32,172 bases of DNA from Crocinitomicaceae bacterium (GTDB lineage: Bacteria; Bacteroidota; Bacteroidia; Flavobacteriales_D; Crocinitomicaceae): positions 1 to 32,172 of the forward strand of contig JBILQY010000001.1 of the NCBI GenBank assembly GCA_044372955.1, written 5' to 3'. This document shows positions 13,855 to 20,356 of the stretch, one piece after another. Within the stretch, counting starts at the first letter, position 1. Each line of letters begins with the position of its first letter. The position numbers and the translations under genes were made by a program. A model generated the notes under the pieces. It had not been told where the DNA came from. It saw only the letters and a program-made list of their open reading frames with translations, and made no database searches.

Positions 13855-14087
13855 CTCCGCCGTGGCGGACGCAATTCGCAACTCCTAGCAGTTTGTACTT
13901 CCATTCGCGATTCTATCGCTAGCAATTCGCAATTCCTAAGCGGTCTGTACTTCCTCCGTCGCGGCGGACGCAATTCGCAATTCCAAAGCAGTCTGTACTA
14001 CCGTTCGCAATTCTACCGTTCGCAATTCCTAAGCAGTTTGTACTACCGTTTGCAATTCGCAATTCTGTCGTTCGTAATTCGCAATTA
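13855..14087. repeat. Higher-order tandem repeat built from AATTCGCAATT-type words, a ~33-nt core (gcaattcgcaaYtccNaagcRgtYtgtactNcc, 4 copies) and two GC-rich palindromes
   Basis: Cores start at about 13871, 13922, 13970 and 14019, spaced about 48-51 nt. ctccgccgtggcggacgcaattcgcaa (13855) and ctccgtcgcggcggacgcaattcgcaa (13954) define a duplicated unit of about 97-99 bp. A tail of ttcgcaatt variants runs to 14087. Confidence 0.85.
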
Positions 14088-14152: not shown

Positions 14153-15898
14153 ATGTATCGCTCGCACACTTGTGGAGAATTAAGAATGGAACACGTTGGT
14201 ACTACTGTATCTTTAGCAGGTTGGGTACAACGTTCAAGAGATTTAGGTGGAATGACGTTTACCGATTTACGTGATCGTTACGGTCTTACACAGTTAGCTT
14301 TCAACATGGAAGTGAATGCCGATTTGTGCGAACAAGCAAGAAAATTAGGACGTGAATTTGTGATTCAAGCAACTGGAATCGTTATCGAGCGCAGTAGCAA
14401 GAACAAAAATATGCCAACGGGTGAAATCGAAATCAATGTGACGGAATTGAAAATCCTGAACGCTGCGAAATTACCTCCATTTACGATTGAAGACGAAACG
14501 GACGGTGGCGACGAAATCAGAATGCAATACCGTTATTTAGATTTAAGAAGAAATCCAGTGTTGCAAAAATTGCGCTTGCGTAATCAAGTGGCATTGGAAA
14601 CAAGAAAATACTTGGATTCGAAAGAATTTTTAGATGTTGAAACTCCTGTTTTAATTAAATCTACACCTGAAGGAGCGCGCGATTTCGTGGTGCCAAGTCG
14701 CATGAACGAAGGACAATTTTACGCTTTACCGCAATCACCGCAAACGTTCAAGCAATTATTGATGGTTTCGGGTTTCGACCGTTACTACCAAATTGTGAAA
14801 TGTTTCCGCGATGAAGATTTACGTGCAGATAGACAACCAGAGTTTACACAAATCGACTGTGAAATGGCATTTGTGGAGCAAAACGACATCTTAGAAATGT
14901 TCGAAGGTTTGATCAAGCATTTATTCAAAACAGTTCGTGGCGTTGAATTTGAAGGCGCGTTCCCGAGAATGACCTACGCTGAAGCAATGGAAAAATACGG
15001 TTCAGACAAACCAGACATTCGTTTTGGAATGGAGTTCGCGGATATGACCGATTTAGCGCACGGAAAAAATTTCGTGGTTTTTGATAGCGCAGAAGCTGTT
15101 ATTGGAATCAGTGCACCAGGTTGTTCTGAATACACACGCAAGCAATTAGACGAATTAACGGAGTGGGTGAAACGTCCACAAATTGGTGCCAAAGGATTGG
15201 TTTACATCAAATACAATACAGACGGTACGTTCAAATCATCAGTAGATAAATTCTACTCTGAAGAAGATTTGAAAGCGATGGCTACACGTGCAAATGCACA
15301 ACCGGGTGATTTAATTTTATTGTTGTGTGGCGATTTAGAAAAAACGCGCAAACAATTGAACGAATTGCGATTGAATTTAGGAACGACATTGGGATTGAGA
15401 AATCCAGACGTATTCAAACCATTGTGGGTGTTGGATTTTCCATTGTTAGAATGGGACGAAGAAAACGAACGTTACCACGCGATGCACCATCCATTTACTT
15501 CTCCGAAACCAGAAGATTTCCATCTGATAAACACAGAACCTGGAAAAGTACGTGCGAATGCTTACGATTTAGCGATGAATGGAGTAGAATTGGGCGGTGG
15601 TTCAATTCGAATTCACGACAGAGCGTTGCAATCGCAAATGTTTGACTTATTAGGTTTCACGAAAGAAGAAGCGCAAGCACAATTTGGTTTCTTGATGAAT
15701 GCTTTTGAATACGGCGCGCCACCACACGGAGGTTTGGCTTTCGGTTTAGATCGTTTAGTTGCCACAATGGGCGGTTCAGAATCAATCCGTGATTACATCG
15801 CTTTCCCAAAAAACAACAGCGGTCGTGACACAATGATTGATGCACCTTCTCCATTAGATGATAAACAATTGAAAGAGTTAGGGATTAGGTTGAGATAA
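14153..15898 (+). CDS. aspS: Aspartate--tRNA ligase
   Basis: [11 protein letters not shown]...[94 protein letters not shown]. Confidence 0.97.
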
Positions 15899-15943
15899 AA
15901 AGTATGCAAATTGAAAGTTAGTGTTTCAATTTGCATACTTTTT
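15897..15943 (+). terminator. Strong rho-independent terminator of aspS
   Basis: agtatgcaaattgaaa-gttagtg-tttcaatttgcatact gives a perfect 16-bp stem, extendable by the flanking AAAA/TTTT. A T run follows. Confidence 0.85.
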
Positions 15944-15950
15944 GGATAAC

Positions 15951-16058
15951 GAAGTTTATTTTCGACGAAATCTTAAGGTAGAAGTCCAAAAAAACTTAAA
16001 ATTATTTCCAGTTGTGGCTATTTTGGGACCGTGCCGATGTGGAAAATTGACAATTTAG
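15951..16058 (+). pseudogene. Relic of the N-terminus of a DUF4143/AAA_14-type ATP-binding protein, truncated just after a degraded Walker A
   Basis: In-frame translation EVYFRRNLKVEVQKNLKLFPVVAILGPCRCGKLTI* resembles the usual N-terminus of this family (...FPAVAILGPRQCGKTT...). Here GKT is corrupted and a stop follows. No downstream continuation. Confidence 0.45.
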
Positions 16059-16107
16059 AAAAAGTTCAATTCTGACAATGGGATTAATAAAAAAAACTTT
16101 TTCGGCT

Positions 16108-16611
16108 TCATTTTTTGTACCCAACTTGTTTGCGTTCCCCTTGTTGAATTTGTTTTTTATCCTTTTGAATGAGGTATTTCAAAACTTGTTCAATGTCGTA
16201 GAATTTATGGTTATAACGGTTTTCAAGATCTTTTAATTGTTCCGAAAGTTCTTGGTAAGTAAGTGCAAATTGACGCATCAAAACAAAAGCGCGCATAATA
16301 CTGATATTTACATCAATTGCAATTTCTGAATTTAATACACTTGATAACATTGCCACACCTTGCTCTGTAAATGCAAAAGGTAAGTATCGTTGCCCTCCCC
16401 AACTTGAGGTCGCAAATTGCGACCTCAAGTTTTCCCATTCCTCTGGCGTTAATTCAAACATAAAATCATCAGGAAATCTCTTGATATTTCTTCTTACTGA
16501 CTCTTTTAATCTCTTAGTTTCTGTTTGATACATTTTCGCCAATTCTAAATCGAGAATGACCTTTTTTCCTCTGATTTCGAGGATGCTACGTTTGATTAAT
16601 TCTAGTTCCAT
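16108..16611 (-). CDS. ORF6N (KilA-N-like DNA-binding) domain protein, copy 1
   Basis: 167 aa. IxEIRGKKVILDxxLAKMYQxETKxLKxxVRRNxxRFPxDFMFELT...PFAFTEQGVAMLSSVLNS...IMRAFV.MRQ is the canonical ORF6N pattern. Confidence 0.85.
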   Translation of the reverse strand: MELELIKRSILEIRGKKVILDLELAKMYQTETKRLKESVRRNIKRFPDDFMFELTPEEWENLRSQFATSSWGGQRYLPFAFTEQGVAMLSSVLNSEIAIDVNISIMRAFVLMRQFALTYQELSEQLKDLENRYNHKFYDIEQVLKYLIQKDKKQIQQGERKQVGYKK

Positions 16612-16691
16612 TTGTTGTTTTTCAATTTAAGTTAGTGAAATAGCTGATTTCAAGAAACAAGTTTGAGCAAAAAAAACAGTCTTTTTCAGCT

Positions 16692-17204
16692 TCATTTTTT
16701 GTACCCAACTTGTTTGCGTTCCCCTTGTTGAATTTGTTTTTTATCCTTTTGAATAAGGTATTTTAAGACTTGTTCAATGTCGTCAAATTTTTGGTTGTAA
16801 CGGTTTTCAAGGTCTTTTAATTGTTCCGAAAGTTCTTGGTAAGTAAGTGCAAATTGACGCATCAAAACAAAGGCGCGCATAATTTGAATACTTGCATTAA
16901 TTGCACATTTAGAATTTAAAACAGCACTTAACATTGCAACACCTTGTTCTGTGAATGCAAAAGGTAAGTATTTTGGAAAATTCCCTTTACCATTTTTAAA
17001 CATCACAAATTGTGATCTTTGAATTTCCCATTCTTCTTTGGTTAATTCAAACATAAAATCATTTGGAAAACGATCCATATTTCTACGAACTGCTTGTTTC
17101 AAAACTCTAGTTTCTACCTTATAAATTGTTGCTAAATCCATATCAAGCATAACTTTCTTTCCTCTGATTTCGAGAATACTACGTTTAATTGATTCTAGTT
17201 CCAT
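16692..17204 (-). CDS. ORF6N domain protein, copy 2
   Basis: 170 aa with the same motifs. Its last 63 residues differ from copy 1 at 2 positions. Confidence 0.85.
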   Translation of the reverse strand: MELESIKRSILEIRGKKVMLDMDLATIYKVETRVLKQAVRRNMDRFPNDFMFELTKEEWEIQRSQFVMFKNGKGNFPKYLPFAFTEQGVAMLSAVLNSKCAINASIQIMRAFVLMRQFALTYQELSEQLKDLENRYNQKFDDIEQVLKYLIQKDKKQIQQGERKQVGYKK

Positions 17205-17284
17205 TTGTTGTTTTTCACTTTAAGTTAGCGAAATAGTTCATTTCAAGCAATAAGATTGAGTAAAAAAAACAGTCTTTTTCAGCT

Positions 17285-17791
17285 TCATTTTTTGTACCCA
17301 ACTTGTTTGCGTTCCCCTTGTTGAATTTGTTTTTTATCCTTTTGAATTAAGTATTTTAAGACTTGTTCAATGTCTTCGAATTTTTGGTTGTGTTTGTTTT
17401 CGAGGTCTTTTAATTGTTCCGAAAGATCTTGATAAGTAAGTGCAAATTGTCGCATCAAAACAAAAGCGCGCATAATATTTATATTTACCTCTATTGCCAC
17501 ATCAGAATTCAAAAGCCCACTAAGCATTGCAACTCCTTGTTCTGTAAATGCAAAAGGTACGTACCTTATTCCGCCTTGTTTTTTTGAGGTGCTAAAATTG
17601 CACCTCAAACTACTCCACTCATCATTAGTTATTTCAAACATAAAATCAGGAGGAAATCTTTTTAGATTGTTTCTTACCGTACGTTTTAGATATTTAGTTT
17701 CAACTTGATACATTTTCGCTAACTCAAAATCGAGAATGATCTTTTTTCCTCTGATTTCGAGGATGCTACGTTTGATTAATTCTAGTTCCAT
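17285..17791 (-). CDS. ORF6N domain protein, copy 3
   Basis: 168 aa with the same motifs. Its last 63 residues differ from copy 1 at 5 positions. Confidence 0.85.
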   Translation of the reverse strand: MELELIKRSILEIRGKKIILDFELAKMYQVETKYLKRTVRNNLKRFPPDFMFEITNDEWSSLRCNFSTSKKQGGIRYVPFAFTEQGVAMLSGLLNSDVAIEVNINIMRAFVLMRQFALTYQDLSEQLKDLENKHNQKFEDIEQVLKYLIQKDKKQIQQGERKQVGYKK

Positions 17792-17887
17792 TTGTTGTTT
17801 TTCACTTTAAGTTAGTGAAATAGTTCATTTCAAGCAATAGGGTAAAGCAAAAATTAAACGTTTTTTAAGGAACCAATTTCTTTCTTG

Positions 17888-17918
17888 AACTTGGTATCAC
17901 ATTTTGTGATACCAAGTT
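17888..17918. promoter_or_regulatory. Perfect 31-nt palindrome (14-bp arms, 3-nt centre) in the divergent promoter region; candidate operator
   Basis: aacttggtatcaca-ttt-tgtgataccaagtt. It lies 97 nt upstream of the ORF6N copy 3 ATG and 61 nt upstream of the ATG at 17979. No flanking T run, so it is not a canonical terminator. Confidence 0.5.
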
Positions 17919-17978
17919 GAATTTCTAATACTTACAAACTTTTTACTATCAAGTTTGTTTCTTCAAAAAAAATGTAAA

Positions 17979-19322
17979 ATGAATAAATTTTTCTATCTCA
18001 CTTTTGCTTTCTTTATTTCATCAGCCGTTTTGGGCCAACATATAGGAATTGTAAGGAAAAACTATTTTAGTACTGTTTTTGACCCAATTATAAATGCCAA
18101 CATCGAACAGTTTGATTCTTCAACAATTCGTTTAGGTACTGTTGATCCTTTATCTGGTGTTGTTTCCAATCTTAGTGAGATTGAGTATCCTTTAGCCATT
18201 AATTTAACAGGAGCAACAATAAATCCTTATTCCAATCACTATTACATTGGAAGTGGTTTAAATTTATTGACTTTCGATATTTCTTCTGGAAATTTAATTA
18301 ACTCGGCACCAATCTCTGGAGAAATCCCTTCGGCCTATTTTCAAAATTATCGTTTCAATCCAAGTGATACTACAATATATGGTATGATACCTCAAAATTT
18401 CTACTCGGTCTATTTTGATAGTCTAGTAATGTCAAACATAGAAGTGCTAGATTCAACGCAAATTCGCTTTGGTTCAATAAATCCTTCGTCAGGTGTTTTT
18501 ACTTTAATCGGGAATACTTCTTACAATAATATTTACACATTAGCGGGTAATTCAATTGACCCTTTTCAGATGGTTTATTACTATTCCGCGGTCAACAAAT
18601 TAATAGGAATCGACCTATACAATGGTGCTCCATTTAGCGTTGTGAATATTCAACTTCCAGTAGGGGGAATTTTTGAAAATATTGCTTACAGTTGTGCTGA
18701 TACAAGCATTTATGGTTTAACACGTCAAAGTTACGTATCAACAGTTTACGATGAAATCTTAATGGAATACGTCCAGATTTATGATTCTACAACGTTTAGG
18801 CTATCTAAAATTGATCCGAATACGGGTGTTGTGACATTTATTTCTCCTTACAATATTCAAGCAGGTGGAAATTTAACAGGTGGAGCTTTCATAGATCCTG
18901 CAACAATGACTTATTTTTTTAATCACGGAAATAAAATCGTTGGTGTATCGATGATTACGGGACTTATTACTTCTTCTGTGATAAAAAGTTATCCCTCAGG
19001 TGAAATTGCATTCGATATGATGCGAAGCACACAAAATTGCTATGGCGTAAGCCGAATGAGAAACAATAGTGCACTCGAAATCGACGAACTTTCAACGATG
19101 AATAGTGAAGTTATCTTGTATCCTAATCCAGTGCAAAGTGAATTAAACATTAAAAGTAAAAAAGCAATTCAATCTACTTCAATCATCGATTTAAGAGGAA
19201 GTGTTTTAATTGAAAGTTACACAAATACAATAACAGTAAATCAACTTCCAAATGGAGTATATTTTGCTAAAGTTAAAACTACTGATGGTGGAATTATTGT
19301 TTGTAAATTCATTAAAAACTAA
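17979..19322 (+). CDS. Secreted protein with three internal ~110-aa repeats and a T9SS type A (Por secretion C-terminal) sorting domain
   Basis: Signal peptide MNKFFYLTFAFFISSAVLGQ from the ATG at 17979. Repeats: YFSTVFDPIINANIEQFDSSTIRLGTVDPLSGVV / FYSVYFDSLVMSNIEVLDSTQIRFGSINPSSGVF / YVSTVYDEILMEYVQIYDSTTFRLSKIDPNTGVV. C-terminal VILYPNPVQSELNIK...LPNGVYFAKVKT. Confidence 0.8.
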   Translation: MNKFFYLTFAFFISSAVLGQHIGIVRKNYFSTVFDPIINANIEQFDSSTIRLGTVDPLSGVVSNLSEIEYPLAINLTGATINPYSNHYYIGSGLNLLTFDISSGNLINSAPISGEIPSAYFQNYRFNPSDTTIYGMIPQNFYSVYFDSLVMSNIEVLDSTQIRFGSINPSSGVFTLIGNTSYNNIYTLAGNSIDPFQMVYYYSAVNKLIGIDLYNGAPFSVVNIQLPVGGIFENIAYSCADTSIYGLTRQSYVSTVYDEILMEYVQIYDSTTFRLSKIDPNTGVVTFISPYNIQAGGNLTGGAFIDPATMTYFFNHGNKIVGVSMITGLITSSVIKSYPSGEIAFDMMRSTQNCYGVSRMRNNSALEIDELSTMNSEVILYPNPVQSELNIKSKKAIQSTSIIDLRGSVLIESYTNTITVNQLPNGVYFAKVKTTDGGIIVCKFIKN

Positions 19323-19382
19323 GTTTTATAAGCTGCTTCAAATTGCTTTTTAACAAATTTCCTCCTAAACAAGTCTAATCAC

Positions 19383-19390
19383 TACCTTTG
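19383..19390 (+). promoter_or_regulatory. Bacteroidota -7 promoter box (TACCTTTG) for ribF
   Basis: Exact TAnnTTTG match. It overlaps the TTG start at 19388 in the ORF track, and the ATG at 19406 lies 16 nt downstream. Confidence 0.5.
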
Positions 19391-19405
19391 CGCTCGAAAA
19401 GTGCG

Positions 19406-20356
19406 ATGAAAGTTTTTGAAGGTTTAGCAAATGTGGGTCAAATAAAAAATCCGGTCGTAACGATTGGAACTTTTGATGGTGTGCATTTGGGTCATCAAAA
19501 AATACTTCAACAAGTACGTTTAGAAGCTAAGAAAATCGGAGGAGAAAGTGTTCTATTGACTTTCTACCCGCATCCTAGAATGGTGCTTTTTCCTGATAAT
19601 CACGGACTTCAATTGCTTCAAACCCAACAAGAAAAATTGGAGACTTTGGCTGAAAATGGCTTGGAAAATATGGTGATTTTACCTTTTTCAAAAGAGTTTT
19701 CGCAAATGACAGCCTTGGAATTTATACGCGAAGTACTTATTAATGCGATTGGAGCAAAAAAAATTATTATTGGCTACGACCATCAATTTGGAAATGACCG
19801 AAAAGGAAATATCGATTTTTTGAGAGCCTACGCAAAGGAATTTAATTACGAAGTGATTGAAATTCCAGCAGAAGAAATTAATGCCGTTAATGTAAGTTCC
19901 ACCAAAATTCGCACTGCATTATTAGAAGGTGCTGTTGATGTTGCAAATACCTTTTTAAATAAGCCTTTTGAACTTTCAGGAACAGTGGTAAAAGGCGAAC
20001 AGTTAGGGCGCACGATAGGTTTTCCAACTGCAAATTTAGATTTGAAAGACAGCACAAAATTGATTCCTGCAAATGGTGTTTATGCTGTCACTGTCCAACT
20101 CGAAAATGACACAAAAATAATATTTGGAATGATGAATATTGGTTATCGTCCAACGGTTTCAACACTCCAAAAACAATCCATTGAAATTTATCTTTTTGAT
20201 TTTGAAGCAGATTTATACAATTCGCATTTAAAAGTTAGACTGCATAAACGTATTCGAGCTGAGGAAAATTTTCTTAACTTAGCTAATCTCAAATCTCAGT
20301 TAAACAAAGATGAAGCTGCTATTCGCTCTTATTTCACTTCTTTTTCTAAACGTTAG
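19406..20356 (+). CDS. ribF: Bifunctional riboflavin kinase / FMN adenylyltransferase
   Basis: TIGTFDGVHLGHQKIL, FYPHPR, GYDHQFG..RKG, SSTKIR, GRTIGFPTANL, GVYAV, GMMNIGYRPT, IEIYLFDF..DLY. Confidence 0.93.
   Translation: MKVFEGLANVGQIKNPVVTIGTFDGVHLGHQKILQQVRLEAKKIGGESVLLTFYPHPRMVLFPDNHGLQLLQTQQEKLETLAENGLENMVILPFSKEFSQMTALEFIREVLINAIGAKKIIIGYDHQFGNDRKGNIDFLRAYAKEFNYEVIEIPAEEINAVNVSSTKIRTALLEGAVDVANTFLNKPFELSGTVVKGEQLGRTIGFPTANLDLKDSTKLIPANGVYAVTVQLENDTKIIFGMMNIGYRPTVSTLQKQSIEIYLFDFEADLYNSHLKVRLHKRIRAEENFLNLANLKSQLNKDEAAIRSYFTSFSKR

Follow-up and report, generated by a model that had tools for sequence, protein, structure and literature searches.

The present work concerns a window of 32,172 nucleotides, the whole stretch of DNA that was analysed (positions 1 to 32,172 of contig JBILQY010000001.1, assembly GCA_044372955.1, from a Crocinitomicaceae bacterium), and in particular three tandem ORF6N genes on its minus strand, each of which carries a palindrome within its own coding sequence. 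These palindromes are copies of a family-wide, dyad-symmetric element of 27-31 bp, termed here the ORF6N box, which has the consensus AACTTGAGGTCRCAA-W-TTGYGACCTCAAGTT and extends over codons 61-70. The box is probably the duplex operator of a dimeric ORF6N protein, present once in the own gene of nearly every member of the family, and it probably serves self-regulation; this proposal is drawn from sequence comparison and a predicted structure.

The three genes encode products of 167-170 amino acids, which match Pfam ORF6N (PF10543) over its full length with scores of 125.8, 117.1 and 112.2 bits, the gathering threshold being 27.8 bits, and with expectation values (E) from 1e-32 to 1e-37. The window proteins also match phrog_4792 (PHROG 'anti-repressor', E 5e-33), and copy 1 matches the PADLOC PDC-S05 model PDLC04856 over residues 3-166 of 167 (E 1.5e-56). 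No nuclease or other recognisable catalytic domain was recognised in ORF6N proteins by domain searches. The genes and their internal boxes are given below, the helix class denoting residues 33, 34 and 37 of the predicted recognition helix.

17285-17791, minus strand: copy 3, first gene of the array, from the list of open reading frames; PF10543 E 1.4e-32; helix class K33/Y34/R37.
16692-17204, minus strand: copy 2, from the list of open reading frames; PF10543 E 4.4e-34; helix class R33/V34/Q37.
16108-16611, minus strand: copy 1, last gene of the array; helix class K33/R34/E37; full-length match to PADLOC PDC-S05.
16401-16431, no strand assigned: intragenic box of copy 1, AACTTGAGGTCGCAA-T-TTGCGACCTCAAGTT on the coding strand; perfect, 15+1+15; codons 61-71.
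16995-17023, no strand assigned: intragenic box of copy 2; core ATCACAA-T-TTGTGAT at 17002-17016, perfect, 7+1+7; 12 of 15 positions complementary.
17583-17609, no strand assigned: intragenic box of copy 3, TTTGAGGTGC-AATTTTA-GCACCTCAAA on the coding strand; arms of 10 bp around a spacer of 7 nt.

The three palindromes had been noticed in an earlier, sequence-only reading of this DNA, and all of them were confirmed by a direct check of the sequence. They share a Phe codon at their centre, as that reading had held: positions 16416, 17009 and 17596 are the first nucleotide of codon 66 in copies 1, 2 and 3, respectively. Complementarity at all three sites exceeds that of 1000 synonymous-codon resamplings of each window gene (P<0.001 in copies 1 and 3, P=0.002 in copy 2). 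The bare 7-bp perfect stem of copy 2 is unremarkable when taken alone (P=0.33) and gains significance only through its position and family context. The extended arms of copy 2 (16995-17008 and 17010-17023) are 86% complementary and represent a weakened box of the RSQxVMF subfamily. The box of copy 3 belongs to the GC class and to the LRCNFSTS subfamily, and the same variant is found in loci L004, L017, L072 and L265 as well as in other loci. When scored with a position weight matrix (PWM) of the box, copy 1 reaches 43, and shuffled sequences reach at most 5.5. Folded as single-stranded DNA, the three sites have energies of -16.4 kcal/mol (copy 1, z -7.9), -5.3 kcal/mol (copy 2, z -1.7) and -10.3 kcal/mol (copy 3, z -5.2). 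A search of the rest of the window with the copy 1 and copy 2 patterns and with the box PWM found no second copy of the paralogues' own palindromes, the copy 3 pattern being uninformative owing to its wrong spacer.

The element is not peculiar to these paralogues. A sample of 240 loci encoding relatives of 45-75% identity was collected from species-representative genomes of many phyla, from viral contigs and from metagenomes, and the homologous codon was located in 254 genes, which yielded 203 unique sites. The sampled loci span Bacteroidota, Planctomycetota, Nitrospirota, Desulfobacterota, candidate phyla and viral contigs. Approximately 95% of the 203 sites carry the box, as a palindrome of odd length centred on the same nucleotide, the perfect arms reaching up to 21 bp, and a search for dyad symmetry in homologues from other genomes, as had been proposed in the sequence-only reading, thus finds it at the same position in nearly all of them. 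The number of complementary positions per site averages 12.5 of 15, compared to 6.9 under peptide-preserving codon resampling, a null that takes the best of nine centres, and 78% of the sites exceed all 500 of their codon resamples. Most of the apparent exceptions are alignment shifts caused by insertions, and after realignment only about four genes are truly devoid of a box. The description of a conserved structure without a conserved sequence proved inaccurate, since the sites share a strong consensus together with a limited set of symmetric variants. Among plasmid records, the box occurs inside genes annotated as 'ORF6N domain-containing protein' in Treponema, Bacteroides, Sulfuricurvum and Segatella, and records of cultured phages contain only five homologues, all of them unannotated. 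Essentially no boxes were found in the E. coli genomes scanned. The family itself is large, with more than 8000 close relatives recovered in a protein search.

Selection acts on the DNA, in agreement with the earlier claim of selection on a nucleic acid, and this is borne out by the codon-resampling nulls, by counts of covariation and by the retention of the palindrome in another reading frame. Codon usage at the box differs from that elsewhere in the same genes: TTT accounts for 93 of 93 Phe codons (67% elsewhere), ATT for 62 of 62 Ile codons (41%), CAA for 152 of 160 Gln codons (60%), TTG for 149 of 178 Leu codons (84% versus 19%), GTG for 94 of 94 Val codons (23%) and GCG for 38 of 38 Ala codons (18%). 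The Arg codons of the box are exclusively AGR (34% elsewhere), and TCA accounts for 139 of 140 Ser codons. Third codon positions in one arm pair with second codon positions in the opposite arm, so that a synonymous change in one is matched by an amino-acid change in the other. The matched codon pairs are Ser TCG with Ala GCG, Ser TCA with Val GTG and Ser AGC with Gly GGC, and further matched arms combine Leu TTG with Ser-Ser and Leu CTA with Leu-Glu.

Covariation between the arms, another comparison proposed at the outset, was measured over homologues for the named 15-pair structure on 102 unique sites, with 500 shuffles and with controls in which the structure was slid. The arms do covary: paired cells amount to 84.4% versus 66.2% after shuffling (a value that 0 of the 500 shuffles reach), two-sided changes are found in 279 cells versus 93 and in 14 of the 15 pairs, and the covariation score is 0.465, compared to 0.164 in the shuffles and 0.06-0.12 in the slid controls. 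Pairing is kept in 82-100% of sequences at positions 2-13 and in about 57% at positions 14-15, and past position 15 it is random. In six unique genes from a diverged clade, the palindrome is kept with its centre at codon position 2, and its box encodes V-[IV]-T-N-C-D or V-V-A-K-C-D instead of the usual R-S-Q-F-V-T; it is thus the DNA that is conserved, and not the peptide.

One part of the predicted protein appears to read the box. An AlphaFold2 model based on 75 diverse sequences has a predicted local distance difference test score (pLDDT) of 80.9 (an earlier model from a shallow alignment, with pLDDT 65.6, was not used). Its N-terminal domain is confidently predicted and comprises strands 11-13 and 16-20, helices 21-28 and 32-41 in a helix-turn-helix-like arrangement, strand 51-53 and helix 56-63, followed by a low-confidence loop (64-78), strand 79-82 and long helices 96-133 and 140-158. 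Helix 32-41 is the predicted recognition helix (pLDDT about 90), and in terms of the model the codons of the box specify the last part of helix 56-63 together with the flexible loop of the predicted DNA-binding domain. A PDB sequence search with the family profile gave no match. MerR-like matches in Foldseek were unconvincing, and membership in any fold is not claimed. Two of the relatives, P0121 (297 amino acids) and P0122 (310 amino acids), are the top matches of the profile search; they have about twice the usual length and score as though each contained two ORF6N domains.

Mutual information was calculated between every protein column and each base pair of the box in 196 unique genes. Box positions 4-5 are tracked by residue 37 (0.91, normalised) and residue 34 (0.82); among the remaining columns encoded outside the box, none exceeds 0.26. 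Position 7 is tracked by residue 33 (0.60). Closer to the box itself, residue 75 tracks position 10 (0.90) and residue 76 tracks position 8 (0.68). In terms of individual pairings, x34-Q37 accompanies TCACAA in 98-101 of 101 cases, R34-E37 accompanies TCGCAA in 39-40 of 40, and x34-R37 accompanies GC at box positions 5-4 in 35-42 of about 50. At box position 7, K33 goes with G:C (119 of 123), and R, S or G at residue 33 goes with A in the majority of cases; at position 10, R75 goes with G:C (151 of 151) and K75 with A:T (29 of 31). Residues 33, 34 and 37 are encoded about 90 nt away from the box and would lie on one face of the second helix of the model. Such a spacing is indeed that of one face of a helix, and Arg-G and Gln-A are classical cases of direct readout. 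The frame-shifted clade follows the code as well, although its box encodes other amino acids, which speaks against a simple intramolecular co-evolution of protein residues. A proxy test extended to another 191 proteins gave concordant results (RE with Ala in 141, VQ with Val in 21 and YR with Ser in 15). The corresponding helices of the window proteins are as follows.

16489-16518, minus strand: predicted recognition helix of copy 1, codons 32-41, TKRLKESVRR; R34/E37-CG class, K33-G at position 7.
17082-17111, minus strand: predicted recognition helix of copy 2, codons 32-41, TRVLKQAVRR; V34/Q37-CA class, R33-A at position 7.
17669-17698, minus strand: predicted recognition helix of copy 3, codons 32-41, TKYLKRTVRN; Y34/R37-GC class, K33-G at position 7.

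The pairings in the window obey the code and fall into three classes, K33/R34/E37 of copy 1 being combined with GGTCGCAA, R33/V34/Q37 of copy 2 with AGATCACAA and K33/Y34/R37 of copy 3 with GGTGCAAT. The suggestion that each paralogue carries its own cognate operator is thereby strengthened with respect to the covariation of residues 33, 34 and 37 with box positions 7, 5 and 4 and to the distribution of the copies over three classes, the binding itself being a prediction.

Boxes are also found outside the canonical codons. The strict core YCRCAANTTGYGR was scanned in 1.9 Mb of collected DNA, in which about two chance matches would be expected, and 134 unique matches were obtained. One hundred of these occupy the canonical codon inside ORF6N genes; a further 23 precede an ORF6N start by no more than 200 nt (from -12 to -150), six follow the stop codon within 150 nt and about five are located elsewhere. 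An upstream odd palindrome is present in 52 of 229 unique genes, sometimes as two or three in tandem (in L205 and in L197, two upstream palindromes are 37 bp apart), the universal copy being the intragenic one at about +195. An exact 25-nt version of the box has 21 matches in viral contigs, 12 inside ORF6N genes and nine intergenic. Comparison of 32 upstream boxes with the class of the adjacent gene showed that 18 belong to that class, versus 12.0±2.3 expected (P=0.007). No consistent partner gene was found downstream of free-standing boxes. Some upstream boxes, at about 5883 in L037 and about 1297 in L182, have hybrid half-sites, with TCGCAA in one arm and TCACAA in the other, and might fit heterodimers of two ORF6N classes. 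In L205 (700-760), a perfect box is located 12 nt past the ORF6N stop codon and is followed by TTTTT, a case which indicates that some free-standing boxes may double as terminators.

The window contains one free-standing box, a fourth palindrome of the same family that was overlooked when the first three were correctly listed.

17888-17918, no strand assigned: free-standing box AACTTGGTATCACAA-A-ATGTGATACCAAGTT; 14 of 15 pairs.

This box is intergenic, 112 nt upstream of the start of copy 3 and about 55 nt upstream of a divergent gene, and it folds as single-stranded DNA with -13.4 kcal/mol (z -7.8). Its inner 7 bp (ATCACAA) match the box class of copy 2, and 27 nt are identical to the internal box of another ORF6N subfamily. 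Homology to ORF6N around it stops at 27-28 nt, and a hidden Markov model finds nothing in the flanks. In locus L266, a gene of this box type (type D) occupies the array position at which the box stands here. The box may function as an operator, or it may represent the core left behind by a paralogue that was lost.

From the selection on DNA, the distribution of the boxes and the covariation of helix and box, we infer binding, dimerisation and a regulatory outcome. An ORF6N dimer would read the box as duplex DNA, its predicted N-terminal helix-turn-helix-like domain being followed by a long helix (96-133) that could mediate dimerisation, and in either half-site the recognition helix would touch box positions 7, 5 and 4 through its residues 33, 34 and 37. 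Each ORF6N gene would thus carry the operator of its own product, and free-standing boxes near promoters would let the same proteins control initiation, a candidate example being the box at 17888-17918 with its inner core of copy 2's class. The outcome might be reached via a roadblock at about +195 or via looping between promoter and intragenic sites, and such self-limiting autoregulation would travel with the gene, whatever promoter it lands behind. Two features expected of an operator are present, in that the site is dyad-symmetric with a conserved half-site and the specificity residues covary with operator bases, subject to the caveat of linkage and recombination. Positions 1-2, beside the single central base, are unable to pair in a hairpin, yet their complementarity is selected and their synonymous sites are fixed, which fits the recognition of duplex DNA better. 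Among the alternatives offered by the sequence-only reading, the evidence favours the predicted dyad-symmetric protein-binding site.

Several points weigh against an autoregulatory operator. Intragenic roadblock repression is usually modest, and binding, dimerisation and regulation are so far predictions for the whole ORF6N family. The helix-turn-helix assignment is taken from a predicted model, for which Foldseek gives only weak matches against the PDB (Dachshund/Ski domain, E about 0.3). The helix residues and the box are encoded within about 100 nt, and their association may therefore partly reflect linkage in a central recombining cassette; a tree built from the rest of the protein implies about 60 apparent class switches with essentially perfect concordance, a count that is confounded by gene conversion. 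The box of copy 2 is weak. Of the upstream boxes, nearly half differ in class from the adjacent gene, and these many mismatches suggest cross-regulation among paralogues. Finally, L262 and L263, the closest relatives, have a degraded version of the box at 17888-17918 (5 of its 31 nt are changed, with near-identical flanks); the box may thus be a remnant of a paralogue that has been lost, and not a functioning operator.

The arrays themselves bear on the role of the box. In syntenic relatives, the array consists of two or three copies, and co-resident copies are always of different box types. Twenty co-resident pairs, compared with identity-matched controls, diverge at columns 61-78 (identity 0.37 and 0.31 versus 0.60 and 0.63), and the ends of their genes are homogenised (0.88 versus 0.55). 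In the window (16020-17880), the 3' halves of the three genes and the spacers of about 80 nt before their starts are near-identical and the gene centres differ, which suggests that the ends are homogenised by gene conversion while the specificity region stays distinct. A bolder proposal, which we put forward as speculative and rather doubtful, regards ORF6N as 'self-addressed', with the operator in the loop codons of its own DNA-binding domain. Protein specificity and target would thereby change jointly, as a single unit, which would give rise to orthogonal types, and the arrays would be panels of orthogonal repressors, each of which throttles itself and silences an incoming phage or mobile element with a same-type gene or box. 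If true, self-addressed arrays would constitute a gene-level immunity or incompatibility system, and this could explain the PADLOC listing as PDC-S05.

The palindrome might instead function in an extruded or single-stranded form, as a hairpin or cruciform that signals recombination, priming or transfer. ORF6N cassettes might, for instance, be shuffled or deleted by recombination between boxes, or the box might serve as a signal during single-strand entry of mobile elements, with ORF6N possibly still as the binder. We consider this unlikely. The single-stranded folds of copy 1 and of the free-standing box are very stable (-16.4 and -13.4 kcal/mol, z near -8), and the arrays of close relatives differ in copy number and look mosaic; nevertheless, the half-site sequence is conserved across phyla and positions 1-2 are selected, both of which fit a duplex better. 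One copy in Bacteroides ovatus lies between integrase genes and ArdA in a conjugative-element-like region, yet most of the genes reside in ordinary chromosomal contexts without a recombinase nearby, and ORF6N possesses no recognisable catalytic domain. In L197, a box joined to sequence of an upstream regulatory type marks the exact start of a truncated ORF6N fragment, but this breakpoint is a single case, and the role as a recombination site that had been raised earlier draws on this one anecdote.

The two loci deserve a description of their own. In L197 (7456-7855 and 8630-8900), the truncated ORF6N that begins at the box retains the C-terminal 105 amino acids, the sequence to which the box is fused resembles the multi-box upstream region of its neighbours, and arrays of three free-standing box types are located nearby with a spacing of 37-100 bp. 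In L267 (Bacteroides ovatus NZ_CP081918.1, 3270-3821), the ORF6N gene has two boxes 51 nt apart, and its neighbourhood, with two integrase genes and JAB/ArdA/DUF3873 genes, is that of a typical conjugative-transposon leading region. A duplicated box motif is also found in the genes of L236, L106 and L068.

Another view accepts that ORF6N binds the box and places its main role in the silencing or targeting of incoming phages or mobile elements that carry an ORF6N gene or box of the same type, arrays of different types being panels of immunity specificities. It accords with the presence of boxes and ORF6N genes in viral contigs and with the finding that co-resident paralogues, in the arrays examined, always differ in box type and diverge specifically in box and loop. 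The family moreover matches the PADLOC candidate defence system PDC-S05, a representative of which, from another organism, is reported to have lowered the plating of T7 and T5 about 1000-fold in E. coli (bioRxiv 10.1101/2024.09.26.614923). The representative concerned is, however, described as a RhuM-domain protein and may differ from the window proteins. ORF6N genes are not known in T7, T5 and T4, and the reported protection would thus need another mechanism. Action in trans on foreign DNA is also conjectural, and as the principal role of the box we regard it as quite improbable.

A hairpin in the mRNA, whether as an RNase III or other processing site, a translational pause, an autoregulatory RNA operator or a terminator-like element, appears very unlikely, and the RNA alternative of the sequence-only reading is accordingly disfavoured. 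Its free-standing copies would act in 5' untranslated regions and after stop codons, and many upstream boxes do lie 12-60 nt before the start codon, where they could be transcribed; the stems are long and perfect, and the box just after the stop codon in L205 precedes a T tract. Yet G·U pairs are not tolerated, and complementarity continues up to the central base, with synonymous sites fixed at positions 1-2, which could not pair in RNA. The combination of TCG (Ser) with GTG (Val), a would-be G·U pair, occurs at 0 of about 95-100 Val sites, though TCG is a normal Ser codon in these genes, and mismatches at position 13 comprise two T·G and nine C·A. On the sense strand as a whole, 42 mismatches are G·T, 120 are A·C and 276 are of other kinds, and the free-standing boxes have 10 G·T, 16 A·C and 25 others, the wobble type (10 of 51) being at about chance level. 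The excess of A·C on the sense strand was considered as a sign of an antisense RNA and rejected: at position 7 the ratios AC/GC and GT/AT are both 0.24, and since both types of transition are equally frequent relative to their parent pairs, the excess follows from base composition. An Rfam search of 15800-18000 (E up to 10) returned only noise at the box sites, and neither a model match nor covariation tolerant of G·U supports a structured RNA. An intrinsic terminator scan of 15850-18050 called none, and the intragenic boxes lack a T tract on the sense strand. The helix-to-base code, in addition, follows the rules of DNA readout.

The idea of a functionless ancestral quasi-palindrome, maintained by template-switch 'correction' mutations in a loop that tolerates amino-acid changes, is hardly tenable and already largely refuted: the arms of quasi-palindromes can be homogenised by intramolecular template switching, and the box-encoded peptide falls in a low-confidence, presumably tolerant loop, yet the idea leaves unexplained the conservation of half-sites across phyla, the fixed central codons, the concentration of free-standing copies just upstream of ORF6N starts and the almost deterministic link with residues 33, 34 and 37, whose codons lie 90 nt away.

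The surroundings of the array provide some further observations. Each copy is preceded by a spacer of about 80 nt, which contains a promoter-like sequence.

17804-17833, minus strand: promoter-like TTGAAA-18-TAAAGT, by consensus match only.

Its counterparts in the other two spacers are at 17217-17246 and 16624-16653, all of these promoters being predicted by consensus alone. The motif TTTCACT-N7-AGTGAAA stands directly ahead of the start codon in every spacer of the array. When the window (14153-20356) is compared with L262-L266, the array is seen to occupy a constant spot beside ribF, with or without a gene for a protein with a type IX secretion system tail. The other flank varies, with aspS in the window and a peptidase S46 gene in relatives, and the array behaves as a small variable island whose copy number ranges from 2 to 3 over these loci. 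Between the end of aspS and the end of the array, a perfect 17-bp inverted repeat with a 7-nt loop and flanking A and T runs (15900-15940) looks like a bidirectional terminator, although a simple terminator scan did not call it. Upstream of aspS, the intergenic region 13855-14086 holds about three copies of a 48-nt tandem repeat together with heptad runs (GCAATTC/CGCAATT); its score with the box PWM is weak, and it is not an ORF6N box.

These results provide a large, widespread and essentially uncharacterised family, known by the labels 'ORF6N', 'anti-repressor' and PDC-S05, with a predicted DNA target from sequence alone. They offer a simple residue-to-base code (Q37-A, R34/E37-CG, R37-GC and K33-G) as well as natural sets of putatively orthogonal repressor/operator pairs. 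Over ten codons and across bacterial phyla, a predicted protein-binding site seems to hold synonymous codons constant and to bring about amino-acid replacements; if this is true, part of the Pfam 'conserved motif' LRSQFATS would be a DNA signal and not a protein signal. The location of the putative operator inside the open reading frame suggests a portable type of regulation for mobile genes, by which control would become independent of the promoter.

Full-text searches of the literature on ORF6N, on the exact box strings and on KilA-N with palindrome and operator found no description of the box, of a DNA site or of a recognition code, and the RhuM literature searched mentions only neighbourhood to restriction-modification genes. 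PDC-S05, the PHROG 'anti-repressor' and Pfam ORF6N are labels of protein families shared by the window proteins, and the DNA site, the palindrome and the code are unmentioned in their searchable sources.

Among known systems, repetitive extragenic palindromic (REP) elements are imperfect, extragenic, present in hundreds per genome and read as single-stranded hairpins by an HUH nuclease (RAYT). They resemble the ORF6N boxes in that short palindromes flank the gene of the recognising protein, whereas the boxes occur in low numbers and in close linkage with the gene, for the most part inside it, and tolerate no wobble pairs; only about five of the 134 core matches lie away from an ORF6N gene, and the proteins have no nuclease domain. 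In rolling-circle plasmids of the pT181 family, the origin is located inside the repC/repD coding sequence, and here too a cognate cis site with a palindrome lies in the protein's own gene and protein/site pairs are specific to each member. The Rep proteins of pT181 are nevertheless nicking initiators and their site is a plasmid replication origin, whereas ORF6N lacks catalytic motifs and its genes are mostly chromosomal or prophage-borne.

The cI/Cro proteins of lambda, 434 and P22 are helix-turn-helix dimers on odd-length palindromic operators. As is proposed for ORF6N, a few residues on one face of the recognition helix set the specificity, and orthogonal classes result. Their operators are intergenic, however, while the ORF6N operator copy would lie inside the regulator's own open reading frame, and ORF6N is no sequence relative of cI or Cro, having no sequence match in the PDB and weak fold matches. 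Closest in position are the auxiliary intragenic operators and transcriptional roadblocks, such as lac O2 in lacZ, gal OI in galE, the PurR site in purB and CcpA/CodY sites. These share with the proposed ORF6N operator a dyad-symmetric repressor site within an open reading frame, a few hundred base pairs from a promoter-proximal site, and action by looping or by a block to elongation. They differ from it in that they reside in the regulated target gene rather than within the stretch that encodes the regulator's own DNA-binding domain, lack conservation throughout a protein family and do not dictate protein sequence. The recognition of an operator by a repressor is thus of a known kind; what appears to be new is a family-wide operator placed in the codons of the regulator's own DNA-binding domain and co-evolving with its recognition helix.

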